A stretch of 64,000 nucleotides of DNA from positions 4,712,001 to 4,776,000 of the forward strand of contig NC_045138.2 in NCBI RefSeq assembly GCF_008831285.2. The letters run 5' to 3'. The notes beneath the pieces were generated by a model. That model searched no databases. It saw only the letters and a list, made by a program, of their open reading frames with translations, and had not been told where the DNA came from. Shown here one piece after another: positions 16,038 through 39,812 of the stretch. Position numbers and translations under genes: made by a program. This DNA is from Nymphaea colorata (Eukaryota). Each line of letters begins with the position of its first letter. Within the stretch, counting starts at the first letter, position 1.

Positions 16038-16590
16038 CCCAAAACACTAAGTTGGTAAATTCTGTTGGCTTGTTATTCTCCCTCATGACATATGTAAAAA
16101 AATGACAATGCATCCTCCACAAAGCCAAGCCTTGCAAAACTTGAAATGATGGAATTAAAAATAGCTATATCTCTGAGGCATTTCCTCAAAGAATTGAATA
16201 GAATCCTCCAATCTATTGAATTTGACAAACATGTCAATAATCGAGCTACATACAACAGATTTGGAGAGAAAACCTGTCTTTATGCAGACCCCAAAAATCT
16301 CATTTCCCGCTGTTGTATCTAGTAAATTTGCACATGCAACAACCATGGTAGAAATACTAAAGTGGTCATGGATGAACCCAATGGCTCCCATCCTCTGATA
16401 ATGGGTTAACGCTTGCTCAGGTTTTCCTGATCTAACACAGGCATACATAATGGCATTCCAGGACACTACATCCCATTTTTCCATACCATAAAACAAATGA
16501 AATGCATAGCTGACATTACTAAACCTACCATACATACAAATAAGGGCATTGTTAAGTATAAGATTATCATGGAGACAGTTCCTCAAAATG
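16038..16590 (-). pseudogene. Truncated, frameshifted copy of the PPR gene at 37519-39812
   Basis: Near-identical to 38384-38938 (ILRNCLHDNLILNNALICMYGRF...FEEMPQR). Has a 2-bp deletion (ctatatctctgagg vs ctatatctctttgagg), lacks the 5' end beyond 16590, and has lost about 970 bp of 3' CDS/UTR. Confidence 0.93.
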
Positions 16591-18611
16591 AGCGAGGCAG
16601 GCAGGAGATGCTTTTCTCTCATGCCTTTCTTCGTTCATGGCTGATTCACGCAGGTCCAAACCTGCGCTGGCTCATTTTTCCTTTACTAGATCGCGGCTCT
16701 TTGGGGGGAGTGTACATCTGTTTGAAACATTTCCGACTCTTATGTTAAATGAGTCCAGTTCGAGATTAAATGATTACTCAAGTTTGGCAATGAGTCGAGT
16801 TCGAGTCGGATGAACTCGACTCGATTAAACTTTTTTAACACTAATACTTATTTATGTAATTTCAAAAACATAAAATGGCTTAAATAAAAATGTGAAAATT
16901 TTAAGCATAAAATATATATTAAGAAACACGAGCTTAAACAAGTTGAGCTCAATCTTGAATTCAGTTAAGCAAGCCACACTCAAGTCGAGCTGTATATGAG
17001 TCGAGTCGAGTTTGAGCAGGTCCAGCTCGAGCTCGGCTTGCTTGTTGTGGGTTGGCAATCAATTTGAGATTTGGTTAATCGGGTTTCACACGCTTTTGTA
17101 GGCCAATGGGCTAGTTGCTGATTCGAGTGGCATGGGTGTCAGCACCACAGGAAATGGGCCAATGGTTGGTTGCTGGTTCGAATGGCTCGGGTGACAAGCT
17201 CGGTGGAAGAGCAATGTATTATCACACTTGCAGCACAGGTTCTAATGCAGGCACCAACTTAGCCAAGCGATCGAAAAGAGAAATTTAATTAATCAGGTGT
17301 TGCTAAAAGAAGACGAAGAAGCGTTGTAGCTGAGAACTTTACACCCCTAATTTCCTTGGTGGTCCTATGGATATAAAGGGCTTCCTAGTGCACCGTCAGG
17401 TGGTAGTTTGTTGTTTTATTTTAAAAAAATAAAACAACAAATAACGAAAATAAAAAAATGGAAACAATCAGTTTGTTATTACAAAAAAATGTCACAAAAC
17501 ATGAAATACCGGTGGGCGAAAATTTGTGTACCAGTATCACAGTATGCCACATATAACCATGTTTGCAAGGCTTGCAATTGTAGCACCAAAGACTGGGTTG
17601 AAATGATTTTGTTGTTTCCTATATTTAATGACTGGATTATTTGCCTATAACTATGACCGCTAAATATAAGGATAGAAATGAAGGTCCAAACAAAGCCTAA
17701 GATAGCTAATCAAATAGAGTGGTTAAGGTCTCAAGGGTGGTGCCACCCAATGGGTTTTTTGGCCTTCTCTTTTTCACCATGTTTGAATGGATGGAAACTT
17801 AAGGAAATGATTAATGGATGGAAGGGACAAGAAAGAAAAATCAATTGAAACAAAATTGGTAGGGAAAGAAAAGAAAAGGAGAAGAAAAAGAAAAATATTA
17901 TTGTAAAAGCTTGTTTGGATATAAAAGAAAGGAAAAGAAATCATTTAAATTAATTTACAAGAATGCTCTTAACACTTGAACTTATTATCTAAGTAAAAAT
18001 ATTTGATTACATGACCTGATTCAACAGTGGTACATGTTTATTTCTTAAAAGAAGAAAATATTGTACTTAACTTAATTTTTTATTTAATAGAAAATAATCA
18101 AATTAAATATTTTTTATGGTACTTAGCTAGAAATTCATGGGTTCTTTCTTATGCTTAATTTTTTAACATTATTTTAAATTTGAAAAAAATAATTTTTAGA
18201 GATCGATAGCTTTAAATGTGGAAAAAAATATATTCATGTTTTTCTATATCCTTATCATTGAGCAGGACCTAATTTTTCTGTAAGGCCCCATTTGATGCAC
18301 ATGAAAAATCCTGTGCATCCGGTGAAAAATGTACGATGAGGGGAAATTTACCTTGTGAGTGGTGTGTGCATCAACCACCACAAAACTTCACCAGGCAAAA
18401 TGTGTACGACGAGGGTAAAATTGACCCGCAAAAAAGTCCGACCTCAAAGCTCAGACTTTTTGCCTCGTTTTCTTCCTCTTTCCCCTCCATCGCCTTTTCC
18501 CCTCTCCTCTCTTGGTCTCTCGTTCCTCTCCACTCTCGTCTCCTCTCTCGCTCTCTCTTTCCTCTCCTCTCTCGCTCTCTCCTTCCACTCCTCCCTTGCT
18601 CTCTCGTGTCT

Positions 18612-18865: not shown

Positions 18866-20654
18866 GTGACTCTTTTTCCCTTTCAATTTCCCTGAATTGT
18901 CCATCAAGTTTGAAATCAGAAATTTAGTACAGTAGCATGACCATACAAATTGGGAACTAGGTTATCCAGTTGTTTCAGTTTGCAATTGACTCTGATACTG
19001 GGGTGATTTAATTTGGTCTATGAAGTCAATTCCCCAGGAAAGTGTATGAAGTTTTTATTCACAATGCTAGGTTCACCAGGGTTGATTTGGTTCCTGGGAA
19101 ATGATTTGTTTCGGTTATGTTTTACGATTTGCCAAGTGAATTTGAAATGAACCTTGTGCACAACTGTGAATTCTAGTTTGTTTGATTGGTTCTATTCAAT
19201 TACAATGGCTACTTTGATTGCAAAATTGCGCTAGTTTCTTTCCTAATCACCCAATTAGGAATCCTAACGAGTGTCTTGTTATATTGCTTGTTTTTCTTTC
19301 ATACCCAACGGTGGAAGAAATATATCCCTTGTGACAAACCAAATAATAACATTCGATGTTTATATAAATCATATTTTCCAAAACATTTTCAAAGGAAACC
19401 TTATAATGCGGCCTTAGAGACATAGCTTAGACTCTTGCATGAGTCTAAGCTCCCCTCCGGCCCACATCAAACTCGAAGTTGGTAATTTTAAGTTATTTCT
19501 TCATTTCTAATCTTGTGAATGCACGTTTGTATATACATGTTACATACATATATGCGTCCATGATGATCTCCCTCATCTTTCTTTCTCTCTATGCTTTCAC
19601 TTTCCATTTTACAAATTTTTGCATGTGCATGAATGCATATGTACATGTGCTTTATTTCCTCTCTTTTGAATATTGTATTCCTTTTTTCAAGACAAATATC
19701 TTTCCATACAATATTTTTTATACATATCAATATATGTGTATGTATATTTTTCTTTCCCTCTCAAACCTCTCTTTCTCTTCAAATGCCTATTTTTCTCTTA
19801 AACTTTCATATATGTGTATGTGTCATAATATGTACACGTATATGCATGTCTTTCTCAATCTCTATCTGTTTCTTTTTATGATAATGTTTTATCTATTGTA
19901 TTCTTTTTTAACATTTTCCTTTCATGATGTTTTTATTTACCGACTTCACTAAGACCACAAACCAAGTAATGACTCAATATTGAAATCATGCTTGATGATC
20001 TACAACCCCAATCCCTTTTCAAAAACTTTTCATTCTTATATGCAATAATTATGAAAACAAGAATCTTAGATGTATGTTATGGTATGAATACATTTAGATG
20101 AATGTCATGGTAGGAATGCCTTATTATCTTTTAATCATGTAAGATCAACGTATTCATGCATTCACATTCACTTAATATCACAAATGAGCACAATCACATC
20201 TCTAAAAGAGCTTAAGCAAGATGAGATGAAATTCTAACTAGGTGGTAACCGAATCAGAGCAAAATCTCAAACCTATTCAAAGTCTTAAGAGAACACTAAA
20301 ATGATTTTAAAATGATTTTTCAAGCTTTCCAAATGATATTCATAAGGATTTCCTTCTAGTTTCCCAAAATATTTCACATTCTCAAGCAACTATTCAAGAA
20401 TCTTTTCAAAAGTTTGAAACAACGAACTTTCAATATTTTTCTACATCGCATATAGAATCAATGATAAACATAGCCCTTGGGTTGATTACCCCCAGTAAAG
20501 GCACCAGAAACAGTCGATCCTCGTACCAATGGACGAGTCCCTTTCTTTCATATTTCAAAACAAAACCTCATTTTTTTGTGAAGTACTCCAAAACCAATGA
20601 AATTTTGGAATGCAAACAGATATAAAGAGAGGTAGTATAAAACATGTGCAGCAT

Positions 20655-20760
20655 TAGAGTGTTGCAATAATAACAGCGAAAACATTCTGGATGCCAAAGT
20701 GCTCCCATGCAATTCAAGAAGCGGTGATGACCTATTTCATTGTTGCAACCAACACATAAC
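20655..20760 (-). pseudogene. Captured LIM-domain exon of a DA1/DAR-family gene
   Basis: LCVGCNNEIGHHRFLNCMGALWHPECFRCYYCNTL resembles the DA1 LIM motif CAGCNxEIGHGRFLxCxxxxWHPECFRC; preceded by a splice acceptor ctctctacag at 20761-20770 (minus strand). Confidence 0.85.
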
Positions 20761-23700
20761 CTGTAGAGAGGGACACAGAGATGTCTAAAATGTGGCATTG
20801 TCATGGAATAGAGATTCCACATCAGTGATGAGTACATATGCATATGATTGATTGGAGTAAATGGATACAACAGCACTGAATGTTCACATTGCAATGCTAT
20901 TCTAAGAATCAAGATCAAACAGGTCCGCAGCAGAAACAGAGTATAGTTCATGCTAGCAGGAACAATGGATAGGATTACCGCGTTTAGAGGGGATGGAATC
21001 TTCTCACAAAGATGACATAGTGGAAAATGAAAGAAGTCGGCAAAGAAGCTTCTTTGGGGAATCAATGGTGAGGACTTAGAGAGAGACGGAGCGAGAGAAG
21101 TTGGGAGTTTAATAAAAATACAAAATAAACTTATCATCATCTCTGGAAGATCGACAGGATGATTTGTGCCTCCTCTTCTTGCCATCCTTCCCGTTCTGCT
21201 TCGTCAGACTGCATAAGAGAACTAGAAAATTAGAGATGGAGGATTTCCAGAGAGGAACAAAGACTTTCGTCAAACAAATGAGATGTTCCCAGAAATTTTT
21301 TTTCCGGAAACGCCTTCAACAGTTAAAAATATATTTCTGCATTTGATAAACCAGAAATATTTAAAAAAAATTAAAATATATTTCCCTAGTAGATACAGGA
21401 AATTTTCAGCCCATCAAATGGGCCCTTATGGAACGTTTGGTAATCTTGCATTTGAGATCACTAGAATCTCAGATTCATGAATTTAAGGACAGATCTCATC
21501 CCATTCAACCTCTAATCCGATGTTTTTGCCATAAGTGCCTGGGAAACAAACCCTCTTTTTTCACATAGTAGTAAAATCCAGTGTTTGTTTCCACTGTGCA
21601 TCCCACGTAAAAGGGATCTTAGCCAGATCAGCTTTGGAATTGAAATATGAGGTTAATTGTCAAACACACTCTTAGTGTTTGAAGATGAAAGACATGAACC
21701 AAAGGAACTAGGTGCTAGATATGTAAAAAATATCGAACCATGCATGTGTGGAGGTTAGCATCCCCTGTACACTTGGACAGATTTTGGGTTTGGTTGGGGC
21801 AGTGGACTGTTGGCTGCTTTATTTTTCATTGAACTTTTTGTAATTGTTTAAGCAAATTGAACCTTTAATGGGTTCCTTACATTGTATTGGTAATATGCAT
21901 TGCTGACCCAAAGTAGAATAATAGGTTCTTTACTCAAACTAGCCGGACGTTTGATGTGCATTCAGTGGTGTCTTGTTTTTTTATTGCTCGTTTGAAAGAA
22001 AACCTTTATATGTCTGTGAATTCTATATGTGTTGTTTCGCTTAAAATAGAGGTTTATGCCGTGTGTGAATTTCTATTCCATAAATTGATCCTTCTCCCAC
22101 TGATTTAAATCAACAATTATGAATATATGATGCAATTCTCAAATTTTTTATATAAATAATTTTAAATCATTGTTAGTAATCAAATATCTATGTTTGAAAT
22201 TTAAAATTTCAAATATGATCTCTTGAATTTTTCAAGTATGTCTTGGAGATGAAAATGGAGAGTGTTATGCAAATGATTTAACGTTATAAAAAAAAATATT
22301 TTCAATAAAAGAAACATTATTATTGTTAAAGACAATGTGGCGACTTATAAGATAAAAACATCTATAAAAGCAAAGATGTACTAAAAATAATAATAACATT
22401 GTTATCAATAAGAGTGGTCATCCACCTGATTTTGCAAAAAAAATCAAGTTACTTGACCTTATTGTAAACTAAGAGTATAAATGTCAAATCTAACAATATT
22501 GATGTTACTCAAAGCAACTAACATTTTTGCTCAACAATAGAAATGTTATTATTCTTGACAATAGTTTTGCAACCTATAAGGAATTGATATCTATAAAAAT
22601 AAAGAAACCAACAAATATAATAATTACATCGCTATCAACAAAAAAATTTGATGACGCACAGTTGTAATAAAAATCAAAGATATGCCTAGAGATTATTGCC
22701 TAGAGATTACTGCAAATAAAGACTTCTCCCAACTTTTCTTCAGGCAGTCCTACTTAGAGTAAAGGACCCTTCTCTCTCTCTTGGCTATCCAACCGGATGA
22801 TTACCTCCAAAGCGGGTTATCCTTTCTTCTTCTTTTTTATAGTGGCAATCCATGAGTTGCACATCCAGTAGTTTCTAAGGGCGTCGTAATCATCGACACC
22901 AGAGGTATTCATGTTCTCAGATATTGTGCACCCCTTGTTTTTTGAATTGCATCATTACAGTTCTTTGAAGAACTGGATGATTTCTTTTGGGTATCATCTT
23001 ACATTAGAATTTAATTATCAGGTACTTAAATGTGATTTTTTTTCTTGATAAACATAGCCTGCCTTATTACAAGTAATTAAAAAAATAAACAAAATCGTTT
23101 CAACCTTAGTCATGTTAACCTTTTATTGTATTTTTTCCCCCTTCTTCTTTAAGATAGGGAGGTCAATCTCCTAGCAGCTTGCATGTAGATGGATGATTGA
23201 GAGAAAAATAAGAAGAAAGATGTATGAACTAATAGTATATTACCAAAATACCTATCTTCTTTTTTGTTAATCATCCATCATGATGGCTCTAGTTTCTAGA
23301 GTCACCATGGCAAATGAAACTGTTTAGAGTTCAGCGGCAGTCGTTATGCTATGCATTTGCAAATCTTTCTCTTTCTTTTTCCTTGTTAAGCACACGAGTA
23401 CTGCATATGCTGAGAGGGGTGAAGCGTGGGAGGGAGGAGCATATGCGACGCTGTTGGATTTGGTTGCACAGCAGATGTTCTCTTCATATATACTTCTGTT
23501 TCTAAAACTTTTAGTTGATGGATTTATCCTTAGAGGTCACATTTTCAACAGATAATACGGTAACTTCAAGTCGATCCTTACAAAATTATGAGAGCCTCAC
23601 CGACCCAAAGCAAGATTTATTCATTAAATAACGCTTCAATTTTTATATGCCTCCTTAACCTTAAAACATCTGGATGGTATGTGTTAGCTTGACATTCAGG

Positions 23701-24812: not shown

Positions 24813-26229
24813 CAGAAATAATTCAGGGATGCACAAGGAAGCTGCTTTTTGAACTGACATTAGCGGATACTAAATAAAAAAAACCATTGGCTCGACACTG
24901 CTGTGGAGAAATTTGTGTTCAACGAACATTCTGTCTAACTTTGCAATAGCATGTTTACAAAAAGATCTTTAGATGCCTGGCATATTCCATAGGATCTTGG
25001 CGATCATTGATTTTGAGTTTAAGGACTGATAACCTCGTATTGTATTAATGGCAACCGCTCCACTCATCTTTAATTAAATATGCTTCTTTTTTAAAACCAG
25101 AAAGACTGAACCTCCTACTGTATTAGTGGCGATCACTCCACTCATCTTTAATTTTGCTTGCCCCACATAACAAGACATGTATGTTAATATTCACGAGTCA
25201 ACAGTCTCGCTCAGCCATTTGATTTACCTCATACCTTTCCATTACTAGGGATGTACACGAGCCGAGTCAAGCTCACTCGAACTCGACTCATATCTTGTTT
25301 ATCCATCGGCTCTATCCCTATCAGCTCTGTTTACTCGAACTCGACTCATATCTTGTTCATCCATCGGCTCTTTCCCTGTCAGATCTGTTTTCTTCCAATT
25401 GTAATCATCAATCAACACAAACTCAGGAGATTGGAGTAAAAATCAATTGCAACCAGGAAAAAGAACATCAAATCCGATTGCAATCACCAAAGCCATTGAT
25501 AGGAGTAAAGAAATACAGAAACAGAAATTTATGAAAGAAATGCAAAAAATTATTCCAAAAAATTCCAGATTTTTAAGTAAATTAAGGTTGTTTAGGTTGA
25601 AAGATAATTGAGACACCATAAAAAGAATCTTTAAGAAAGCGCTTTTCAGATAAAAATGCAGTTACATATCAAGTACTTAACCTACTGAGCGTTAAAAGTA
25701 CATTTTAAAACTTAAGCAATCTTAACATTGAGTAGCTTTTTTTTAATTTCTTCGAAAGGAAAAATGCCTAGATACAACTTGTCATGAAGCTACTAAATAG
25801 ATATTGCATAAGAAATAAGAATGAAAATGTCAAATAGCAATTAAATGATGATACCATAATCAATGTGGCTATCTGTGTTGTGCTTTAGTTTTGGAGGCCA
25901 GAAAATTACTTGGAAAAAATCAAGTGAAAGTAAACACCCTGGTGTGTCCCGGTATCCATGTTGCCATCTTGATACACCAATAAGGCATGGAGACAAATTT
26001 GGTGCAGGTGAAAATGACCAGCTAGGAGCCAAACCAAAAAAAAAAAAAGAATCGCACTGCAAAAAACATGAGATTTATTAACGGCCAGAAAATGTCAATA
26101 AAAGTTACAAAACCGTCAGTATAAGTATTATCAACTGTGCATGCAATCTGTTACTGTAGATGGTATCGTTGAAGCATTCACTGGCAGATATGTCAACCGT
26201 TGGTACATGTCCACTTCTCCTGTCAATAA

Positions 26230-26254
26230 GGGCCCGTTTGATGGGCGGGTGAAA
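26230..26254 (+). repeat. Left TIR of the Harbinger element
   Basis: gggcccgtttgatgggcgggtgaaa, preceded by TAA. Confidence 0.95.
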
Positions 26255-26469
26255 GTGGGCGGGGGAGGAAAAATTTGTACGGGCGGGTGAAATTTCACCC
26301 GCCCGGTTGAGTAGCCATCAAACGGGGTGGAATTCCACCCGTTTAACCGAAGAGGGAGCGGGTGGAATTCCACCCGCTCGAAAGTCCAAGCTCGGAATAT
26401 ACCCATCATGCTATTCTGCTGCAGCGCTCGAAGTCCCTCCGCAACGCTCGACCTCCCTCCGCAACTCCT

Positions 26470-26567
26470 CCTCCCTCGTGCCTTCTCACTGCCAGGTCTC
26501 ATCGTCGACCGTCGCAAGACCCTCAAGCGGCCGGCGTCGGAGGTTTTTCTGCCGGTATATCTCTCTG

Positions 26568-26615
<48 letters not shown>

Positions 26616-26921
26616 CGTCGCTAGCTGCCCACATTTCCCCCCTTTCTTCCGCACATTTCCCCCCTTTCTCTGTGCTGGGTAGCACCCTCAAATGCCCCCA
26701 TTTTTTCCCCCCTCAAACGCCCCCATTTTTTTCCTCCCTCGTGCCTTCTCACTGCCAGGGTTTCACCGTCGACTGTCGCAACACCCTCAAGCGGCCGGCG
26801 TCGGACATTTTTCTGCCGGTATATCTCTCTGTCGCTCTCTCTCTCTCTCTCTCCCCGTCGCTAGCTGCCCACATTTCCCCCTTTCTTCCGCACATTTCCC
26901 CCCTTTCTCTGTGCTGGGTAG
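26470..26921 (+). repeat. Direct duplication (about 200 bp; 26470-26682 and 26733-26921) in the GC-rich 5' region of the Harbinger
   Basis: Both copies run cctccctcgtgccttctcactgccagg...ccctcaagcggccggcgtcgga...(CT)n...tgtgctgggtag. Confidence 0.9.
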
Positions 26922-28632
26922 TTCCCTCAGACGCCATAATCTTCACTCCTCCATTTCCGCTTTTTGTATCTTTGATTTATGTGGTTCTTTTGTTTTTTTT
27001 TATTTAATTTCATGTTTTGTTTCTCTTGTTGGGTGTTCACATTTCTTATCGTTCTTATTTGCGGCAGTCTGTGTAAACGAGCAGCTAAGTAATAGAAGCA
27101 TTGTAGTTATCCTTATCGTTCTTGAACGATGAGCTAATGCTATATGTTATGTTTCACATCTTCCTGGGTGTTTTTGTTTCTTTAAGTTACTTTTTATGGT
27201 TATTTGCGAAACAAAACCTTGTTTCTTTCGAGGGAATTTTATCTTGCTAAAGCAGATGATCGCCTACAGATTCCCCTGTAGGAGTTATATGAATTGAGCT
27301 CCATGTATTGAAAACAAGCTTTTGGTGGAGGCATAGAAATGGTTGCCTTAACCTTATCTCGTTATCAGTATCGCCGTTCTTTTCTCTGAGTTTCATTATG
27401 TTATCCCTTAGGGCATTTGGGCCCTTAGATAGAAACGGGGCTTAGATTTCAGCGACGCAAGTTGCCTGTACAGGGACCTATCTGACAATAAGAGAAGAAT
27501 CTATTTTTCTCATTTGCCTGTACAGGGACCTGTCTTGCCTTCTCAAGTTCTTTTGTGAAAGACCAACAGTAAGAGTACCACAGTGCCTTATAACTTAAAA
27601 CCTGCAAAAAAGAACAGGGCCTAGCTCTCTGTATCTACGGGAGAGTGAATTTCTTTCGAATTAGTTCCTAGTAGAACTGTTGTATCCTTTTCCATTTTTA
27701 TTCTCTTTCCTTTACCAATTGTCATTGTCTTGGCCAAGTGTATGATAGAAGGGAACATGAATGTCTAAGGGTGCTTTTAACTTTTAAGTAGTGCATAACA
27801 ATCACCGTGTAGATTCTTCCTGTTTCTAGGATGTTGGTTTTCTTCAACTTATATCGGAGGCTTGCAGAAGCAAAATGGGCTGCATGAGATGGAGAAAGAT
27901 GCCTGAATTAATAGGCAGTTTGTTCATAAATAACGTTGTTCACGCCTCCGGTGTCTAATTGTTCTATTCTCAGTTATTGTTCTCTTATATGTTTTTCACA
28001 AAAGAAAAACATGTAATGATCTTTTCTATGGATGAAACATAATATATAGCATTAGCTCATCGTTCTCACAAAAACATTTATATTTCACTTTGTCTTTACA
28101 ACAAATAGAGCCATTGTTTGGAGCTTGTAGTGGTTAATCTTTTTCTTTTTGTATTTGACACAGATTCTCTCTATTGCAAGAATCAAGTTTTAACTTTTAT
28201 TGGATTTAGAGTGCGGTTTTCACTTGATTCCTATTGCAAAAATAGTTGCTATTCTTTTTGCATAAAGCTTGCATCAAATTTTGGCAACATTGCTAGGGAA
28301 CGACAAATTAAAATCCCAAATATTCAGTTTATTGCTGACATCTTTTGTACTTATCATGTGTTATTAGTTTGCTTTGGTTCTTGGAAACCCATTTTTTGCA
28401 CATATGGATTGTAAGATCATAATTGCGTAATTAGCATAGCTTGAGATGAATTTCCTTTCTTTTCTGTGTATGAAAGGTCTACTTATGCTTTTAATTGGCA
28501 ATGGTGGAAACTTTATGTCATGCTTTTTCTTTTGGTTTTTGATGCTCCTTTGTCGTTGTTTCTCGTACAACTGTTCTTCATGCTAGATTTATATTATTGT
28601 TACTGTGAAGAATTATTATACAAAACGTTAAC

Positions 28633-29854
28633 ATGGAAGACAGCGGTCCTTCAAGAGAAAATCTTACGTGGACTGAACCACAAATGGATTACTTAGTCCA
28701 GCTTCTTGTGGAGCAGTCACGCATCCTTGGCATGAAATCTGGTGGAGGTTTGAAGCCCAAAGCATACACAGCTATTGAAAAAGCAATGATGGATAGATTC
28801 GGTCCAGAATTCACGAAAGACAAAATAAAAAACAAATTGAAGCATTCCAAACCCAACTTGACAGTGATGAAGGAAATGTTGAACACAAGTGGGTTTGGCT
28901 ACGACCCAATTAACAAATGCATTGAGGTCGACCCCCAAGTATGGAACGACTACATTGAGGTAAATTATAAAATTAATATTGTTAGGTTTTGTCTCACATG
29001 TATTTGCTTCTGCAATATTTGAACACATGAATTTTTTCAGAAATATCCGAATAGGAAAAAGTACAGAGGTCCAAAAGTTTGGAGATACTATGATGAGTTC
29101 GCCGAGGTATATGGCGAATCTCATGCAATTGGGCAAAACGCAGTCACATTAAACAACGTGCTTGAAGTTGAGACTGAACCACTCCCATGTACACCTGCAT
29201 CTCAGACATCACCTTCGTACATGCAGCCTGATAGTGAACAGTCATTTACACAGTCGCCACTACCTACAACTCCTACAACTGATTTGAACACATGAATTTT
29301 TTCAGAAATATCTAAATAGGAAAAAGTACAGAGGTCCAAAAGTCTGGAGATACTATGATGAGTTCGCCGAAGTATATGGCGAATCTCATGCAACTTGGCA
29401 AAACGCAGTCACATTAAACAACGTGCTTGAAGCTGAGACTGAACCACTCTCATGTACACCTGCATCTCAGACATCACCTTCGTACATGCAGCCTGATAGT
29501 GAACAGTCATTTACACAGTCGCCACTACCTACAACTCCTACAACTGAGAATCCGACAACCAATACAAGTACACGTAGGTCAAAACGGAACAAGTCAACCA
29601 ATGATGACATGTATTACAATTTGTTGAACGGTATAGCTAAAAATGTGGACTCCCTCACACATACTTCTAGAGGGTTTCAATATGTCAAATATTGTGAAAT
29701 TTTACAAGAGATGGTGGACACAGGGCTACTAGATAGTCATACGAGACTGATGAGTCTAGACCTGTTAGGAGAGGGAACCAATTCCATGATCTTTCTCAAC
29801 GTTCCACCTGAAGACTGGCTGACATGGTTGTCGCGTAGACTTGGTGATTTGTAG
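28633..29854 (+). CDS. Harbinger Myb/SANT-like DNA-binding protein; exon 1 28633-28959, exon 2 29306-29854 (291 aa); alternative acceptor at 29041 gives a 193-aa truncation
   Basis: MEDSGPSRENLTWTEPQMDYLVQLLVEQ...GGLKPKAY...IKNKLK...SGFGYDPINKCIEVDPQVWNDYIE|gtaaat; after tttcag| the frame continues KY.NRKKYRGPKVWRYYDEFAEVYGES, typical of plant Harbinger Myb/SANT proteins. Confidence 0.88.
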
Positions 29855-30095
29855 GTAAGATTCCATGTCTGTTAGTTTAATTATTTGTATGTTTCATTTG
29901 GCACAATAACATTTGTTGTGTGTTTTTCTTTTTATTCCATGAACATCCATGTAGTGAGAAATTGTTGCAATGTATTTGCAGTTTAGTCGAAATGATTGAT
30001 TTCGTTATTCAAGTACCTTACATGTATATGCAGTTTAGTCGAAATAATTGATTTTGTTATTCAAGTACCTTACATGTATATGCAGTTTAGTCGAA

Positions 30096-31494
30096 ATGAT
30101 TGATTTTGACATGTTCGATGACGACGATGAACGAGTGCTTTTCATCATTCGAATGGTTTTTGTCTTCATTTTCTTTTGGTTGAAAGACCAACCATCATCT
30201 AGGAGGATTGTTCATCCATTTCGAGATGCTGGTACATCTTTTGTCCAACTAATGCTTCGCGGTCATCCTAAAAATTGTTTGGACTTACTCCGTATGGAAG
30301 GACATACATATATGAGACTGTGTAACATTCTAAGGAATAGAAATTTGTTGGAGGATGCTCGTGACATTACTGTAGAAGAACAAGTAGCTATATTGCTTTT
30401 GACAATTGGACATAATGAACGGAATCGTGCTGTTCAAAATACGTTTCAACATTCCGGACAAACAATAAGTAAATATGTCAGCCTAGTGCTACGAGCGATA
30501 TGTATACTGGGTAAGGATTACGTTCGTCGGCCCAATGATGAGATGATACCAGCACATATTCGACATTCTAAACGATTCTTTCCATATTTTGAGGTGATTT
30601 CATCATCTTGAACTCAACATGACATATACAACATGACAAACTACAACATGACTAACTAGTTGTCTTGTCATATAGAATTGTTTAGGAGCAATCGATGGCA
30701 CACATATACCGGCTTGGGTCCCTTTTTCAGATCAAGCAAGGTTTCGTAATAGAAAAGGTTTCGTTTCTCAAAACGTCATGGCTGTAGTCGGCCTTGATAC
30801 TAGATTCCACTACGTTTTGGCTGGATGAGAAGGAAGTGCAACAGACTCAGGAGTATTGTACAATGCACTAGATCATGAAACAGACCCATTTGTTGTCCCA
30901 GAAGGTACGTAGTTCCACCAACCAGTTCAGTCTTTTATTAAGAAGCATGTATCAATGTATAAATACATTGTGTTCAATTGTAGGCAAATTTTACCAAACA
31001 TTGTTGGTTTGCTTATACCTTATCGAGGACATCGTTATCATATGTCTGAGTTTAACACTCGGGGAGCACGTTCACCTAGAACAGAAGAAGAATTATTCAA
31101 CCATAGGCATTCATCACTCCGAAATACAGTAGAAAGAACTTTCGGCATGTTGAAAGGTCGTTTTCCAATATTGAAAATGCAAGTTCAGTATCCTTTCCAA
31201 AAACAAGCTCAAATTGTTCTTGCTACATGTGTACTGCACAACTTCATAATTGAACACAATCCAAATGCCGAGCAATTTGATGATGAAGATGCACCTTCGA
31301 TTGATAATTTCGTCTTAAGCGAACCTGAAATTGCAAGCCAAACACATCAGCGAGGAAGCAACAATGCTTTGAGAGCAGCTATATCATCTCAAATGTTTAC
31401 AGATTATCAATTGAATAGTAAGTTTGTTTATAAATGTTGACTACTTCTTCAGTTTGATTGTCTGACATTTGTTTTCTTTTCAACAGGACAATGA
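30096..31494 (+). pseudogene. Harbinger DDE (HARBI1/DDE_Tnp_4-like) transposase, disabled; exons 30096-30593, 30676-30904, 30984-31417, 31487-31494
   Basis: Motifs LRME..YMRLC, VEEQVAILL.TIGHNERNR...FQHSGQTISK, CLGAIDGTHI, RNRKG..SQNVM, YVLAG*EGSA (TGA 30826-30828 replaces W), GKFY joined out of frame to PNIVGLLIPYRG (DxGY motif missing), FNHRHSSLRNTVERTFGMLKGRFPIL, ATCVLHNF. Confidence 0.92.
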
Positions 31495-31823
31495 AGATGA
31501 TGCTCCGCCAAAAGTACTATGTGGTTTTCGAAGGACGTGAGCGAGGCATATATGACAGCTGGGAGCGGTGCCAACCATTAGTCTATCGGTACAAGGGTGC
31601 CATCTTCAGATCGTTTGATTCATTACAAGTAGCAGAAAATCACATGCATAAGTATCTCCAGAACAAGTATGGTGTGCAAGTACGCAGGTCTCCACTCATT
31701 GAAGATGTCATCGCAAAGCAAGTTATAGAAGACACGCAGTTTGAAGAACGAAAGTGCAGCCAGAAATGTTGGATTACTTGTTTTGTGATTACATGTTTTC
31801 TTTGTTGGATATGTACTCATTGA
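31491..31823 (+). CDS. Harbinger ORF3: 110-aa protein with an RNase H1 N-terminal hybrid-binding (Cauli_VI-type) domain and a hydrophobic Cys-rich C-terminal tail
   Basis: KYYVVFEGRERGIYDSWERCQPLVYRYKGAIFRSFDSLQVAE fits the consensus YY.V..GR..GIY.SW..C...V..Y.GA.(F/Y)KSF.....A. No RNase H catalytic domain follows; tail CWITCFVITCFLCWICTH. ORF is intact and inside the TIRs. Confidence 0.82.
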   Translation: MKMMLRQKYYVVFEGRERGIYDSWERCQPLVYRYKGAIFRSFDSLQVAENHMHKYLQNKYGVQVRRSPLIEDVIAKQVIEDTQFEERKCSQKCWITCFVITCFLCWICTH

Positions 31824-32551
31824 ACTTTGTTTTTTCTTCTTAGTAGAAAGTACACCCTTTTGTGGATTCGTACTCATGTTACTTTTGTGGACAATTTTTG
31901 TTTAATGTTTTTGGGAACAAATATATAACTTTTGCAGTTGTAGATTAAGTTAAGAAGGTGTTTTCTGTTGTAATGTGTTGCTAGATATTTCTTTTTGCTT
32001 TTTGTTATATATATCGTGTGAATAGTCGTGTCTTTTAATGAACTGGCTGTATGGTGATTTGTTTTGGGATGATTGATGAAGAAATATATGGGTTCTGCAG
32101 TCCATTTTTTGTTTATTGGTTTTGGCTTGGTGGTGGTTCCATGAGATGATGATCTTTCTCGTTTGGTGGTGTGCTTGGGTAATCTGTACATATAAGAATC
32201 GGTGATGAGGTGATGATCTTTCTCGTTAGATGTTTCGGCTTCGAAACACAAGCTTTTGTGGCATTTATTTGAGTGGTGATCTTTTGTTGTTTTGTAAGTT
32301 AGCATTCCTACTCCTTTCAAAGTGCAATTGGGGAGGAAAAAAAAAACAACATTTTCCAGGTTAAATTTTCCCTGTGCATCAAACAGGGTTAAATTTACCA
32401 CGTTAAATTCTTCATGTTCATCAAACTGGGTTAAATTTACCACGTTAAATTTCACCCGACAATCAAACAGGGCCTCGTTTTAGAAGAGGGTAAAATTTCA
32501 TCCACTAAATTTTTCTAGAAAAATTTACCTTGGTAAACTTACCGCATTAAA

Positions 32552-32576
32552 TTTCACCCGCCCATCAAACGGGCCC
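32552..32576 (-). repeat. Right TIR of the Harbinger element
   Basis: tttcacccgcccatcaaacgggccc followed by TAA; exact reverse complement of the left TIR. Confidence 0.95.
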
Positions 32577-32701
32577 TAAATTCCGAACCTTTACTGGCAA
32601 TACCAAACTATCAGCTAAATTAACTCCATAACTTTTACTGAGGGTTTGCCACATTAGTAAATAACTGATCTTTACTGACTCGTTTTGGAAGAGGGTAAGA
32701 T

Positions 32702-35427
32702 CGGCATTAGTTCAATTATTTTGGGTTGCTACTGTTAGGGACTGCAAAAGATGGATTCATGACAATTTAGTTGACACATATACTGCTTTACACTGAGAAT
32801 CGGGTTAAACGAAAAAAGGTAGAGGCTTAGCCTCTTCAAGGTCTTTGCATAAACTAAAGCAAAATGTACAATTGTGAAATGTCTCGCATCGATAGACCAT
32901 GGGTATTTGTATAAACTAAGCAAAAAAGATGCAGTTGTGAAATGTATTTATTCTATAGTATCCATCAGTAAAAAAGACAAAGTGACTAGAACATCATTTT
33001 CTTTACAATAGACCAAGGGTATTCGTACGAACTAAAGTTAAAAAGGCAGTTCCGGCGGGAATTTAATCTTTAATGTATCTGATTTTATTACGTAAAAACA
33101 ACTCGGATATATGACTTTGAATCCAAATTTATTTCGACCTTGGGTGGATTTTAGAGTCAAATTTAGACTCGGTTGTGAAGTACAAATTGAACCCACTAGC
33201 CAGATCCAAACCTTGTAATAATCTAAAGATTGACATAAAGTCATGCATTTGTGTGTGTGTGTGCGCTAAAGACAGTGGTGTAGATGACTTTGCAAATTGA
33301 TCAAATCAATTTATGAATGATAGGCTAAAGAACTAAAGATAAGGATCAAATTGCCGACCATTACAATGATTTCATGCACCGGCCCTTGGCTTCCACGCAC
33401 TTCTTTGGATTTCAGGCACCACTCTTCCTCTCATCTGCAGTAGAAAAATTCAGATTATCATTCTAGTAATCACCCCAAATTTTTCAAAAATCTATATCTA
33501 TCAATTTACAAGCATTTTATCATAAATTTACAACAAATTTCAAGTATTTTTCATCCTCAAACACTTCAATTTCTCCCAATTCAAATTAGTTTCTTCTTTT
33601 ATTTGATTATCAACTATATTTGAGACTTATTTGGCTCGGATTTCGGACTTTGCATGACAAACCTCAACCTCAATTTATGCTTATTTTACAATTTAATGTT
33701 GGATCCAGTCCAAAAACTTATACAAAAACCAAGACAAATCCTTAAATCTAAATCCGGATCCAAATCCTAGCTCCATTTCCAAAACAGAACACTAGATCAA
33801 AATCAAGATCTAAATCGCTGTTCCAAATCCAAAACAGATCAATAGACCCACATTCAGAACCGAATTCCAGCTCTACATTCAAAACAGATCCTTAGATCAA
33901 TATCCAGATCCAAATACAAATTCTAGCTCTAGATCCCAATTACAAGGCCAGGCTAGGTGTGAAAGATCTTTCTAACAATAGCAACAGAGCAAGATCAAGT
34001 GACACTAGCCAACAGAGCAAGGCTAGCTATTTGCTTTCATGTTGGCTTTCTTGATTTCATAAACAGAAGGCTGCAGTTGAGGGTTTAAAACGAGTGATGC
34101 AGGAAGAAAAATCCAACAATAACAAAAAAAATCGTTCTTCCATTAGAAAAACAAACATTATAGGCTAAGTGCATTCATGCAAGGGTATATAAGCTAAATA
34201 GAATGAATGGTATTAAAATGAAGACAAAGTCAATTTTTTTCTTTTCATTTTTGTCATACCATTGTCCACTTGCGTGTGGTTCAGCCTACCATCTTTGGAT
34301 GCCTCGTATTTTCTTTTCTTCTTAAAATCCCAATCAAAGAAATAAGAACAAATTGATAGTGGTCCCTTTCTTTTTTTTCAGACGATCATTCATTATTTTT
34401 ACTGATATTGGAGGTTAGCTTGATGATTCTCTATATACATCTCCTTTTAGCTTTGTTCCTGTCTTGGCACAGTACTCATTCTTTAGCTGCCTCAACTGTT
34501 GGCTTCCCACAATCTCCACGGACGCATCTTTATGGATGACAGAGTTTCCATTCTTTTTCCTTATTAGTTTCCTAGACTCTTCTCTCATCTGCACTAGATT
34601 CCAAGCACAGATTTTACTTTTTTGTTCGTATTTGTAAATGTTTCTGTAACTGACATGAATTTCCAATCAGCCAAAGAGACAGTTCTGTGTCAGTAATGAT
34701 AAACTAGCACTACGAGCTATTTATTTTTCTCTCCTAACTTGTCAAACGACAAAGCACTGGAACACCAGGGAAAGATCTTTCAATTTGGAGCAGCTAGGAA
34801 AAAAAAAAAAAAAGCCTAGGGAGAGAGACCAGACCTCTGAAATATGTGTTAACAAATATTTACGTAAAACTCCTAATGCGTTTACAAACAATAATTTAAT
34901 ATAAATTGAGCTTTAGTTCAAGTTATTTTTTGTAAAAGAATCGGTATTTCCTGCTATCCAAATTTTGGTGTTACAAGAACTGCTCATTTTTGGATTACTA
35001 AAACATATTACTAAAGTAAAAAAAAAAAAAGTAATTTAATATATTTTTCTCACCAAATCATGATTCTTAGGACCATATCTATAAAGTCAAATTGCAGAAA
35101 AATGCTTTAATAATTAGTTTTAATGGGTCTAAGTCTTATCCCTTACCCAAATGGTATGGTTTTTACCAACTTATCTCCAAGTTTTCCTCTTCGATACTCT
35201 TGAGCCCTAGTTCCCCTTCAAGAATGGGCTTACAAATCCTGGCCCAAGAAACATAGTGCACACGTCTAACATCTGAGGATTCACCCTAGAGGAACGCAGC
35301 CATAGTGGAGTTCAATTGGTTGACAACAGCAGAATGAATGTAAAAAACACAACTCCTAAACTGTATAACATGGCTCAAAACCTGCTTTATAAGACTCAAT
35401 CTTCCAGCGAAAGTGTCTTTTCTTTTA

Positions 35428-35467
<40 letters not shown>

Positions 35468-38400
35468 GTTTTTAAACTTATATTTTTCTTGAACCAAAAT
35501 CTTTAGATTTCAAGAAGGCCAAGATCAATGTGCAACACCCATGATACTTATCATTGGGACCATACTTAGATGGCCTACAACCTCAAAACTTGTCAAAAAC
35601 TTTTTTTTTTTTTCAGATTTATGTTGTTAGGAATGGCATACTTTCTTTTCAACTATATAAAATTCTTTAACTTCTCATTTAACATGCATATTCACTATGT
35701 ACTTATAGGATTCACGAACGTCACAACTACTTCTCTAAAAACCCAAGCAAAACACTAAATAACGTGGTAACTGAATTAGGGGCGGGGCAAAATCTTGAGA
35801 TTAACTTGAGTTTCAAAAGAAGACACTAGCTATTAACTTTCGTTACTTGAGAAACGATCATTTCATTAAAGTGTTTTGATAAAATTTTAAGATCTTCTTT
35901 CAAAATTTGACTCCGTTTTTCCTTTTTAAATGCTTATTCCAAATCAAAATGATTCTTAATTAAGATCACTTCTTCTAAAATATCTTTCCAACCAGTTGAT
36001 CAAAAAAGATTATAGAACTCTTTTTCCCAAGGACTTAGATAACACTTGCTTATTTTTAAGGATTGGCTGTTTCATCATTTACTCGATTTATAAAACGTTA
36101 AATTTCTAAAAGACTTTAAACTTCTTAGCATGCACCGCAGCATATTTAAGTTGGGGATAACGCTTAATTGAACTTGAAAATACACTAAGAATGAACATAG
36201 CCTTTGACCTTGCTACCCCCGGTCCCTACAAGAATGATAACATATACTAAGTTACAGACAGCCTATTTGTAATTAGTCACCGTTTCTTTCTCTCACGCAT
36301 GCAGAGAGTTGCATTAGACAATGAACCTTCTTTAGTGCAAAACTAGCATTCGTTAGAGAAGCTTACAGAAGCCAACTTTTAACATCACAGCACCTTCCCT
36401 CCTTTTATTATCACGAAAAGAAAGTTGATTCAATGGGTCTGCACCCTCCACTATTCATCAGAGAAATATGGTACTCGTGAAACACTTTATATAAACTATA
36501 AGGATTTACATATATGTGCTTTCTGCTTTCAAGCTCGGCTGCTGTATCATAACATCTATTTTTAGGTCCAAGTGCCCAAGTTTAAGAGAGAACTTGGATC
36601 TTACTTAACTGAGAGTGAGTTTACACAAGATAGTAGTCAGAATGCAAACGGGTTGGAGTTGCAGCCAAAGTTTGGCAATATGTCCCTGTATCAACATGGA
36701 ATTAGCAGGGCTTTTATTTTTATAGATACTTATTCGCTTTCAAGTCAACTAGGACTCTGCTCACAATTAAGCAAAATGCTTGGTTAGTTAATCCTTGTGA
36801 TTATGCATATTTTTCCACATGAACGTCCTTTACTGCAACAAAAATAAAAAAAGGCTTGACATCAACAACAAAAAGTTAACAGTAAAGTAAGATTGCTGCT
36901 ATGTATTATCTACCATAAGCACCTTTTCGACCATGAGTTGCTTGTTTTGAATCTTTTGTTAGTGATGGACAAAAATCTAGTACAAAAATCAAGGTTTCAG
37001 ATAAACCAGGTTCAGTGTAGGTTCAAAAACATTGTTTTTTTATTTCACGCTTTTGATACCAACAAAGTAAAACAAAGAACACAAGAAAAAAGTCCTGCTT
37101 CTTTGGAAATGAGGGGCCAGGAAATGCTTGGAGTTGAAAAGAAAAGAGAACAGAAAAAAAATTATAACTTCCCAGTCACCCATCAGCTGCTGAGCTGGAA
37201 GAGGCCAACCCACATGGTGGGTCAAGCCAATTATCTTAAAAAAACAAAGAAACGCACATAATACCCAAAGACCGACCAAGCCAGTCAAGTGGGCATGAAT
37301 CATGGTCCAAAAAAATAGATGACCGACTTGTTGGTGACTATGTCAACTAGGTTGGCTTGTTACTAAGTTGGTAAAAAGGATTCAACTAACCATATATTTA
37401 GCATTTCATTTAGCATTCTTAAGAAGTTTTTCTATAAATATTGCATATCTAACACCAACTTGGGCCACTTGCAAGATAATTGATAACAAATTATTCAACC
37501 TACCGCAAGTGCAGTACGTTACTCCACACTTAGATCACCCAAGATTGCATAATCCACTGAAAGATAGTCCATCTCCTGTATATCCCACCATAACAACCTC
37601 AAGGTGTTGTATACAGCCTCCCCCCCTGGATGCACCATGTTATCTTCCCTAAAGACAGCTAACTTGTTCCTCATAATGATCCAACTGCAGCCAACCGCTT
37701 CTTTCAAACATCTCACCTTCATCATTCTTCTCAAACGAACCACACTTTCCCAGTGGCATTTCATTGCATATACTTGAGCCAATACAACATAGGGCAAAGA
37801 TTCCCGCGGCTCCAATGCAACCAAACTTTCTGCAACCTGTTGTGTGATTCCTATATCAGCATGTAGTCTGCAAGCTCGGAGAAGTAGCCCCCATATTAGA
37901 GCACTTGGCTCATATGGCATAGATTTGATAACTTCCATGGCCTGCTTTAGCCTTCCTGCTCTACTTAACATGTCCACCATGCAAGTGTAATGTTCAATAT
38001 CTGGCATAACACCATGCTCCACCTCCATGCATGAAAACAGTTGGCTTCCTTCATTAACTAGACCACCATTACTACAAGCCAAAAGAACAGCAAAGAAGGT
38101 GATTTTGTCAGGTAGTACGTTTTTTGAACACATTTCCTTCAGTAGCTGCAAAGCCATGCTTGCTTCACCATTTCGAGAACATCCCATAATCATGGTGTTC
38201 CATGAGACCAAGTCCCTAGAATGCATATTAGCAAAAACTTTCATAGCACAATCAATGTTTCCTGTCTTGGCATACATGTCCATTAAAGAGTTGGAGACTA
38301 CAAAATCTGCTTCAAAGCCAACTTTCAGTGCCAAAGAGTGCAACTGCCTACCTTGCTCAATGGAGACGATACATGCAGCACAACCCAAAACACTACCAAA

Positions 38401-38938
38401 AGTAAATTCTGTTGGCTTGTTATTCTCCCTCATGGCATATGTAAAAAATGACAATGCATCCTCTACAAAGCCAAGCCTTGCAACACTTGAAATGATGGAA
38501 TTAAAAATAGCTATATCTCTTTGAGGCATTTCCTCAAATAATTGAATAGAATCCTCCAATCTATTGAATTTGGCAAACATGTCAATAATCGAGCTACATA
38601 CAACAGAATTGGAGAGAAAACCTGTCTTTATGCAGACCCCAAAAATCTCATTTCCCGCTATTGTATCTAGTAAATTTGCACATGCAACAACCATGGTAGA
38701 AATAGTAAATTGGTCATGAATGAACCCAATGGCTCTCATCCTCTGATAAAGGGTCAACGCTTGCTCAGGTTTTCCTGATCTAACACAGGCATACATAATG
38801 GCATTCCAGGACACTACATCCCATTTTTCCATACCATAAAACAAATGAAATGCATAGCTGACATTACTAAACCTACCATACATACAAATAAGGGCATTGT
38901 TAAGTATAAGATTATCGTGGAGACAGTTCCTCAAAATG
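32702..38938 (+). repeat. Segmental duplication, copy B (paralogue at 4800-16590)
   Basis: Same matching blocks as copy A. Lacks the equivalent of about 10150-14000 and overlaps the intact PPR gene. Confidence 0.9.
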
Positions 38939-39812
38939 TTAGCATGAACCTGCTTACCATGCCAGATATTTGAAACCCCCACTGAAATGATGATTGAGAA
39001 TGTGAACCCTGTTGGTCTAATTCTTCTTTCCCACATCTCCGTAATCAATGTTAAGGCAGCTCCATGTTCTCCCTGCATAAAAAACCCAGAAAGTAACGAA
39101 TTCCAGCTGACAACATCCTGTTGAGGCATTTCACCAAACACTTTCTGGGCACTCTCAACTTCACCATTTCGAACCAACCCACCTAACAAAATGTTCCAAG
39201 AAAATATATTCCATTTAGGTGTGTCATTAATTGCTTTGAATCCATCATCAGACTCACCAAGACTGTAGTACAAAGACGAAATCTGATTGCCAAAAAAGGT
39301 TGCAGTACTGAGACCCAACCTAATCAACCTTGAGTGAACTGATTGTGCAAAAGCTAGACAATTACTGGAGATAGATTGGTTGAGGAGACTGACACAATTT
39401 TGAATAATGTCTTCCCTGTCAATAGGAAAGCAAAAACCATGAGTGATTTGACATGAAGGACAGAAGGGTAGTCATAAAACTTAAAGTTGGCAGGTAGAAT
39501 AGATTATCGAGGATCAGAAATAACTATGCACAACGGAGGATTTAATATGCATAAATAAATCTACCAGAAGTATATAACCATCTGTGACAATGTAGACATA
39601 TACAAACCACGCATATAACATGTATTGGATATAATTTCGTAAAATGCAACAGATATAACCTATAGCAAACAAATAATTCACCACATGAATAAAACGTGTA
39701 ACAAGCAATAAATATGTCACCTGTAGTGCCAGAACGAACCTGTAGTAGATGATTCTTTTTGTTGCAGCTTTTGTCTCTTTGATGGGAAAAAGATACAAAC
39801 TTCCATTGACAT
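37519..39812 (-). CDS. PLS-class PPR protein, E/E+ subgroup without DYW (resembles At1g43980-type); proposed exons 39812-39721 and 39415-37519, about 662 aa
   Basis: Long ORF of P/L/S motifs (DVVSWN repeats, PDIEHYTCMVDMLSRAG), E domain ending EAVGCSWI, short E+ tail. The ORF lacks its own ATG; acceptor attgacag| at 39416 joins in frame to an upstream ATG exon (MSMEVCIF...FWHYR|gtgac). The upstream exon is inferred. Confidence 0.9.

Follow-up and report, generated by a model that had tools for sequence, protein, structure and literature searches.

Two genes of a three-gene PIF/Harbinger transposon from Nymphaea colorata are spliced onto a third in reads from related copies

A stretch of 64,000 nucleotides from Nymphaea colorata (assembly GCF_008831285.2, contig NC_045138.2, positions 4,712,001 to 4,776,000 of the forward strand), hereafter the window and numbered from its first letter, contains a PIF/Harbinger DNA transposon. 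The element is 6.35 kb long, spans positions 26230-32576 and has three open reading frames (ORFs) on its plus strand, which encode a Myb/SANT protein, a DDE transposase and a small protein designated ORF3. Its parts are listed below.

26227..26229, no strand: left target-site duplication TAA
26230..26254, plus strand: left terminal inverted repeat (TIR), 25 nt, identical to the right TIR
26255..28632, plus strand: 5' leader region, with a GC-rich, internally duplicated part (26400-26950) followed by AT-rich sequence
28633..28959, plus strand: exon 1 of the Myb/SANT gene (PF12776, E 8e-16)
29041..29854, plus strand: exon 2 of the Myb gene, ending in TAG
29855..29860, plus strand: splice donor GTAAGA directly 3' of the Myb stop TAG (29852-54), used in RNA of related copies and joined there to 31487
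29970..30125, plus strand: tandem array of three 52-nt units, each with an intron tail, an acceptor and the transposase start, at 29970, 30022 and 30074
30096..31417, plus strand: DDE transposase (PF13359), exons 30096-30593, 30676-30904 and 30984-31417
31418..31486, plus strand: transposase-ORF3 intron, 69 nt, donor GTAAGT (31418-23), acceptor TTCAACAG (31479-86), spliced in RNA of related copies
31487..31500, plus strand: start of the shared last exon, with the ATGA of this copy at 31491-94 and that of the family at 31497-31500
31497..31823, plus strand: ORF3, 108 amino acids (110 if read from 31491), with PF01693 at about 31512-31640, an acidic linker and a hydrophobic C-terminal stretch
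32348..32551, plus strand: subterminal TIR-like direct repeats with 42-nt spacing
32552..32576, minus strand: right TIR
32577..32579, no strand: right target-site duplication TAA

The assignment to PIF/Harbinger follows from both ends and genes. Elements of this group have short TIRs with G or A as the first base and duplicate a TWA target; here the 25-nt TIR is perfect and TAA stands at both flanks. The last transposase exon matches PF13359 (DDE_Tnp_4 type) with an E value of 6e-14, and the near-identical N. colorata protein P0023 (92/94 and 139/141 residues identical to the window transposase) does so at 5e-28. The second ORF expected of the group is present as the Myb/SANT gene, and ORF3 contains the N-terminal domain of RNase H1 (PF01693, E 1.4e-16). 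Homologues were from Nymphaea for all 6 ORF3 matches, all 11 Myb matches and 15 of 16 transposase matches, the remaining one being from Victoria. A second copy of the element was not found within the 64-kb window.

The copy itself is dead. Instead of the intact transposase and Myb ORFs of an autonomous element, it has a transposase in which TGA stands in place of a Trp codon (30826-28) and a deletion at 30993/94 shifts the frame, removing the ADGGY motif of its relatives. Exon 2 of the Myb gene has undergone a 265-nt tandem duplication (29017-29281/29282-29546, 257/265 positions identical) in which acceptor and exon were copied, and the frame is broken unless the second acceptor (29305) is used. 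The transposase acceptor has been multiplied in the tandem 52-nt copies. Identity is 97% within the 265-nt and 94% within the 52-nt duplication. In both duplications of the coding part (29017-29546 and 29970-30125) the copied unit takes in the tail of an intron, an acceptor and the beginning of the exon that follows, which amounts to a bias. A looser third duplication lies in the leader (26469-26935).

The original prediction for this DNA, made from its letters, held that splice signals link the three ORFs into one tricistronic mRNA, that the gaps between them are almost entirely intron-like, that a stop/start overlap precedes ORF3, and that ORF3 resembles part of a viral reinitiation factor. 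The named signals are present: the Myb stop TAG at 29852-54 runs directly into GTAAGA (29855-60), TGCAG at 30081-85 precedes the transposase ATG at 30096, and GTAAGT at 31418-23 is followed by the acceptor at 31479-86. Both gaps have the composition of introns, with 29% GC and 44-49% T. Only the third 52-nt copy has an acceptor that opens the transposase frame, with the ATG 10 nt on, and from the acceptors of the first two, the reading frames run for 19 and 9 codons. Minus these two extra copies, the Myb-transposase gap would have been 127 nt ancestrally. A candidate acceptor for the Myb gene itself, AAG at 28610, lies 22 nt 5' of the Myb ATG.

Reads of four runs were mapped on positions 29282-32400, with about 6% of each raw run read and at least three reads required for a joint. 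None of the listed runs shares half of the window's words, and none of the runs that share words is on record as RNA. All mapped reads come from related copies; in run X21, 100 of 390 reads are at least 95% identical to the window. Fifteen of 18 joints were listed, and negative statements about joints refer to those 15. In X21 the transposase is joined to ORF3 at 31417^31487 by six reads with six different starts and GT..AG borders, and the C-termini of RefSeq transposase models described below agree with this junction. A second joint, 29854^31487, takes the donor at the Myb stop straight to the acceptor of ORF3, leaving out the transposase; it too has six reads, six starts and GT..AG borders. 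Splicing at the 29855 and 31418 donors and at the acceptor ending at 31486 is therefore real in related copies. About ten X21 reads reach the end of the Myb gene, six of which go straight to ORF3, and depth is zero across 29906-30009. The depth over ORF3 (ca. 30-36) is roughly the sum of those over the Myb gene and the transposase (ca. 8-21 each).

Related copies thus produce RNAs with two ORFs, and an RNA with all three has so far not appeared in these runs, none of which is of long reads. The predicted splicing together of the ORFs holds for the Myb-ORF3 and transposase-ORF3 pairs, whereas the joint that a tricistronic mRNA needs between Myb and transposase, 29854^30086, was absent from the listed joints of the four runs. 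This absence carries little weight because depth was low, three reads were required, and diverged Myb ends would not map.

Another run, X22, gave 44 spliced reads (39 + 5) that join 31417 to 31491 via three other letters, so that the frame is shifted and the stop/start overlap lost. All X22 reads are of a single strand and cluster in two stretches, 30114-30529 and 31362-31881. Depth reaches 1549 on the 5' part of the transposase (30114-30529), with reads from a related copy that carries a 19-nt insertion and an in-frame stop. This accumulation points to an RNA 3' end at an early position or to internal priming, and some RNAs would end early in the transposase if X22 is a 3'-tag library.

Our preferred reading, to which we assign a probability of about 0.55, is that the element forms one transcription unit with alternative splicing among three acceptors and that ORF3 is the last exon common to the Myb and transposase RNAs. 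A single promoter would serve all three ORFs; promoter, leader exon(s) and intron(s) are likely located in the leader at 26255..28632. Each ORF would have its own acceptor just 5' of its ATG (22, 10 and 10 nt), and the choice of acceptor would set which protein is made first. Skipping of the transposase exons within one element would keep transposase levels low. The stop codons also fit differently into two- and three-ORF RNAs. The Myb ORF stops 0 nt before the last junction, and that of the transposase stops 14 nt past it. Nonsense-mediated decay (NMD) in plants is triggered by an intron more than 50 nt past the stop (PMC3711448), so the Myb-ORF3 and transposase-ORF3 RNAs would escape it, whereas a Myb-first RNA with three further introns would be a decay target unless ribosomes restart. 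ORF3 protein is predicted to come mainly from RNAs in which the leader is joined to ORF3; reinitiation on the two-ORF RNAs may contribute a minor share.

The transposase acceptor seems to be used, as judged from a gene model and from contigs. In P0029, a RefSeq isoform of a related locus, the N-terminal peptide reads the end of Myb exon 1 in a shifted frame and continues through the transposase acceptor sequence to the transposase Met. The peptide matches at 10 of 20 residues, the best value in the window (next best 7), and the donor at the Myb stop would give only 2/19. The acceptor hence takes a donor in P0029 that differs from the one at the Myb stop, and Myb exon 1, in this gene model, seems the sole donor that can be named. 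Furthermore, an X1 contig begins at the equivalent of 30087, and two X6 contigs carry unmatched sequence 5' of 30083-85, as at a used acceptor. Since the mapped stretch starts at 29282, joints from Myb exon 1 or from the leader could appear only as loose ends.

A leader-ORF3 RNA is suggested by an X1 contig with 140 foreign letters before 31487 and by two of nine N. thermarum gene models (P0060 and P0061), which join leader-like sequence to ORF3; 0 and 1 of 300 shuffles, respectively, reached their match counts. A tblastn search of the upstream peptides against the window gave nothing significant, the best hit (E 0.14) being in the leader, and only the short-word test flagged the two models.

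Several observations weigh against a single alternatively spliced unit. In one X1 contig the intron between the Myb end and the transposase is retained, at a depth of 17, the RNA status of X1 being a guess and the run possibly DNA. The foreign sequence before 31487 is unmatched in the window (best 18/30), and a junction from the leader to ORF3 or to the transposase was not directly seen in a mapping that began at 29282. Because the reads are all from related copies and mostly less than 95% identical, the two joints may stem from different loci, and the Myb-ORF3 reads could derive from an internally deleted element instead of from exon skipping. P0029, P0060 and P0061 are gene models whose RNA support is not visible. 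In both two-ORF RNAs the ORF3 AUG lies at most 10 nt past the upstream stop, closer than avoidance of NMD needs. Finally, the function of ORF3 is a prediction from sequence.

In another explanation, the genes would have separate promoters and the joints would be by-products of read-through from host or upstream promoters, and of internally deleted and decayed copies that use the strong acceptor of the last exon. Separate promoters are the stated default for the superfamily, whose two genes 'appear to be independent' (PMC2836001), and two-ORF descriptions are also given in PMC4482050, PMC2213677, PMC6327408 and PMC5543537. In organism A, the copy from which the commonest reads of the transposase 5' part derive has an insertion and an in-frame stop (loose end 30121), and N. 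thermarum models often place unrelated exons on the ORF3 acceptor (7/9 have no leader match). The space for such promoters is small, however. The gap before ORF3 is the 69-nt spliced intron, and the Myb-transposase gap, which shrinks to 127 nt when the two additional copies are discounted, is T-rich and has no TATA match. Moreover, in relatives each of the two upstream ORFs has a functional donor precisely at its end. We consider separate promoters improbable.

The overlap of stop and start codons before ORF3 exists in the window, although not at the position that the family conserves. The spliced window transposase ends in YQLNRQ-stop, and its TGA (31492-94) overlaps an ATG at 31491-93. All 14 homologous ORF3 models that include upstream residues, from 19 ORF3 records in all, have Thr at the position of this Met, and the two closest transposases end in RQRR-stop. 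The ATGA at 31491-94 is therefore likely a private CGA-to-TGA (C-to-T) change of this copy, and it was rejected as a conserved signal; the overlap of the family lies 6 nt further on, at 31497-31500. The RQ-stop ending of the window was found in none of 19 transposase records that cover the C-terminal region. Seven of these end in R-x-R-R-stop (P0023, P0025, P0008 and P0029, and the more distant P0015, P0032 and P0033), four are fused to ORF3 via a donor 4 nt further on, and eight end otherwise. P0023 and P0025, identical to the window at 138-139 of the 141 residues of the last exon, end in RQRR-stop and P0008 and P0029 in RERR-stop, as the 31417^31487 splice predicts. A loose end in X6 agrees with the ORF3 records at the RNA level. 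The family overlap is kept in two subfamilies (RQRR-stop and RERR-stop) that are about 83% alike, and it is absent in the X22 variant.

The four fused records (P0007, P0024, P0026 and P0027) bear on another explanation, in which ORF3 is a C-terminal domain of the transposase that is read in frame by use of the donor at 31422. In the window this donor would open the frame QLNSKTMKMMLRQ. All four records are N. thermarum gene models, however, the RefSeq models have the RQRR- or RERR-stop endings, and 31421^31487 is in no listed joint as compared to six reads for 31417^31487. A fusion protein as the regular product appears very unlikely.

The overlap would also fit a single tricistronic Myb-transposase-ORF3 mRNA translated by termination-reinitiation, possibly aided by ORF3 as an analogue of the dsR domain or mini-TAV of the caulimovirus protein P6/TAV. 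In the family the transposase and ORF3 ATGs each lie 10 nt past their own acceptor, so both would sit 10 nt after the Myb stop, whose position varies by no more than one residue among 6 of 11 homologues. At least two subfamilies preserve the ATGA, and the conserved ORF3 Met is followed by M, K or I in 19/19 records, in each case with a codon that starts with A. Leaky scanning cannot explain downstream translation, as the Myb and transposase coding sequences contain 24 and 31 ATG triplets. Myb exon 1 joined to the transposase acceptor would run to a stop codon at 30101-03, in overlap with the region where the transposase starts. From known systems come the observations that both proteins are made from a Ping cDNA carrying the two genes (PMC2836001) and that the RNase H-like dsR domain of TAV binds TOR, eL13 and eL18 (PMC5902531). 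Against this stand the missing 29854^30086 joint and the ease with which the sequence features may arise. Once the upstream frame meets the ATG, we estimate the chance of an ATGA at about 10% (1/3 for the frame times ca. 0.3 for the A), the A-initial second codon reflects just two independent changes, and TAG|GT is an easy coincidence because TAG provides the AG of the donor consensus. Reinitiation is further disfavored by the X22 variant, which removes the overlap, and by the lack of a TURBS-type motif (termination upstream ribosome-binding site), TGGGA or TGGA, in the ca. 180 nt that lead up to the stop of the transposase; a single TGGA occurs 140 nt before the Myb stop. Caliciviruses and SART1 share the stop/start overlap (PMC10275272, PMC5902531), but the calicivirus TURBS sits 40-87 nt 5' of it, and here the overlap is created by splicing. 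Overall we regard the tricistronic mRNA as doubtful and retain alternative splicing onto a common last exon as the better explanation.

The properties of ORF3 were compared with those of RNase H1 and of TAV. Residues 9-50 match the hybrid-binding domains of yeast (1qhk, E 2.5e-7) and human (3bsu, E 0.005) RNase H1. The structure model of ORF3, with a predicted local distance difference test score (pLDDT) of 72-87 over residues 1-60 and poor values beyond, overlays 3bsu at 1.2 Å over 46 residues. Unlike RNase H1, ORF3 ends in a hydrophobic stretch, and the catalytic domain PF00075 was not found in it, so it is not an RNase H1 enzyme. In the viral structure library BFVD the best matches are caulimovirus TAV/P6 proteins (E 3e-5, 18-36% identity over 52-94 columns). 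The nearest domains outside Nymphaea are of the RNase H1 type, with 26 of 41-43 residues identical (best 150 of 1371 representatives at E 0.001), and are closer in sequence than P6. Capture of caulimovirus gene VI as the origin of ORF3 was rejected, since ORF3 is no closer to P6 than to RNase H1, in a comparison with no tree behind it.

The TAV dsR domain binds RNA-DNA hybrids, double-stranded RNA and TOR, is part of mini-TAV and is needed for reinitiation, and no TAV-like factor was known outside Caulimoviridae as of 2018 (PMC5902531). The predicted resemblance of ORF3 to a reinitiation factor stands for this small RNase H-like domain, which is recognized by PF01693 and by its fold; it does not extend further, as TAV has about 420-540 residues with separate eIF3g, RISP and eL24 sites and ORF3 only 108. 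We think that an accessory role in binding hybrids or double-stranded RNA is more probable for ORF3. It is predicted to be a catalytically empty binder of such nucleic acids that would aid the element against host silencing. That the transposon makes polycistronic mRNAs by splicing and encodes in ORF3 a TAV-like helper for restart after the long Myb and transposase ORFs seems highly improbable.

The end of ORF3 (31767-31817) is a Cys-rich hydrophobic stretch with a Kyte-Doolittle value of 2.1 over 17 residues that is kept in several homologues and is possibly a membrane anchor. The layout of domain plus hydrophobic tail also occurs in P0110, P0133 and P0180. Atlas clusters from land plants contain proteins of 80-98 residues with this domain alone (94 and 124 members; score 0.86, a lead only). 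A metagenome scan confirmed one of 73 pattern matches, an RNase H1 N-terminal domain of 47% identity at L001:6001-6135 on a 722-kb contig, which is probably part of an ordinary microbial gene; for viral contigs the outcome was 0 of 5.

Several known systems resemble the element in part. Ping/Pong, DcMaster/MtPH-M and PePIF1 also have a Myb/SANT ORF followed head to tail by a DDE_Tnp_4 transposase, short TIRs starting with G and a TAA/TTA duplication; the TIR of ZmPIFa has the same first 11 nt (PMC6327408), and a cDNA spanning both genes is on record for Ping (PMC2836001). The element differs from Ping/Pong, DcMaster/MtPH-M and PePIF1 in its third ORF and, in RNA of related copies, in the splicing of both genes onto it. 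CACTA (En/Spm) elements make several proteins from one unit by alternative splicing (PMC2836001), the same logic as in our preferred reading, but belong to another superfamily by transposase and TIRs, of which the present element is no member. In Anopheles the domesticated PIF pair APLG1/APM1 places a transposase and a Myb/MADF gene on one dicistronic transcript; these are insect host genes, for which the available text reports no third ORF and no shared last exon (PMC9710019). No literature report was found of a Harbinger element with an RNase H1 N-terminal ORF or with such splicing, in a search that left Repbase Reports, most subscription journals and supplements outside its scope; the passages found in PMC13668399 and bioRxiv 10.1101/2024.04.02.587720 had no bearing on the element.

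A transposase-like gene represented by P0015, P0032, P0033 and P0034 is closely conserved between Nymphaea and Victoria, forming one 90% cluster, and is about 62% identical to the window transposase. It retains the same NNRCRR-stop terminus, carries substitutions in the vicinity of the catalytic motifs and is a candidate domesticated Harbinger gene. The leader of the element contains an inverted pair of 33 nt (97%, 27124-27156/28033-28065) with 876 nt between its arms, which was rejected as a nested element because no target-site duplication was found. Three diverged 50-nt tandem repeats lie 3' of the element (33725-33915). The host genes of the window are an Rx_N-NB-ARC-LRR resistance gene, three PPR ORFs and one LIM-domain ORF.

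320-3817 (minus), 16155-16622 (minus), 20568-21185 (minus), 37519-39129 (minus) and 61271-63400 (plus): these host genes together

The present data describe a Harbinger family with a regular third gene, onto which both canonical genes are spliced according to RNA evidence, the transposase being skipped in one form. The expression of PIF/Harbinger transposases has so far been left to a presumed internal promoter, and the splicing model offers an alternative way in which transposase may be limited, which would be relevant to the Ping/Pong tools for genome engineering. If reinitiation were to take place, the element would contain a native plant signal for polycistronic expression, and if ORF3 were a TAV-like helper it would be without precedent outside Caulimoviridae, going by the available text of the 2018 account (PMC5902531). 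ORF3 is a candidate accessory or anti-silencing factor, predicted to bind RNA:DNA hybrids. In view of the land-plant clusters of small single-domain proteins, taken as a lead, the three-gene arrangement may be widespread and so far unrecognized.

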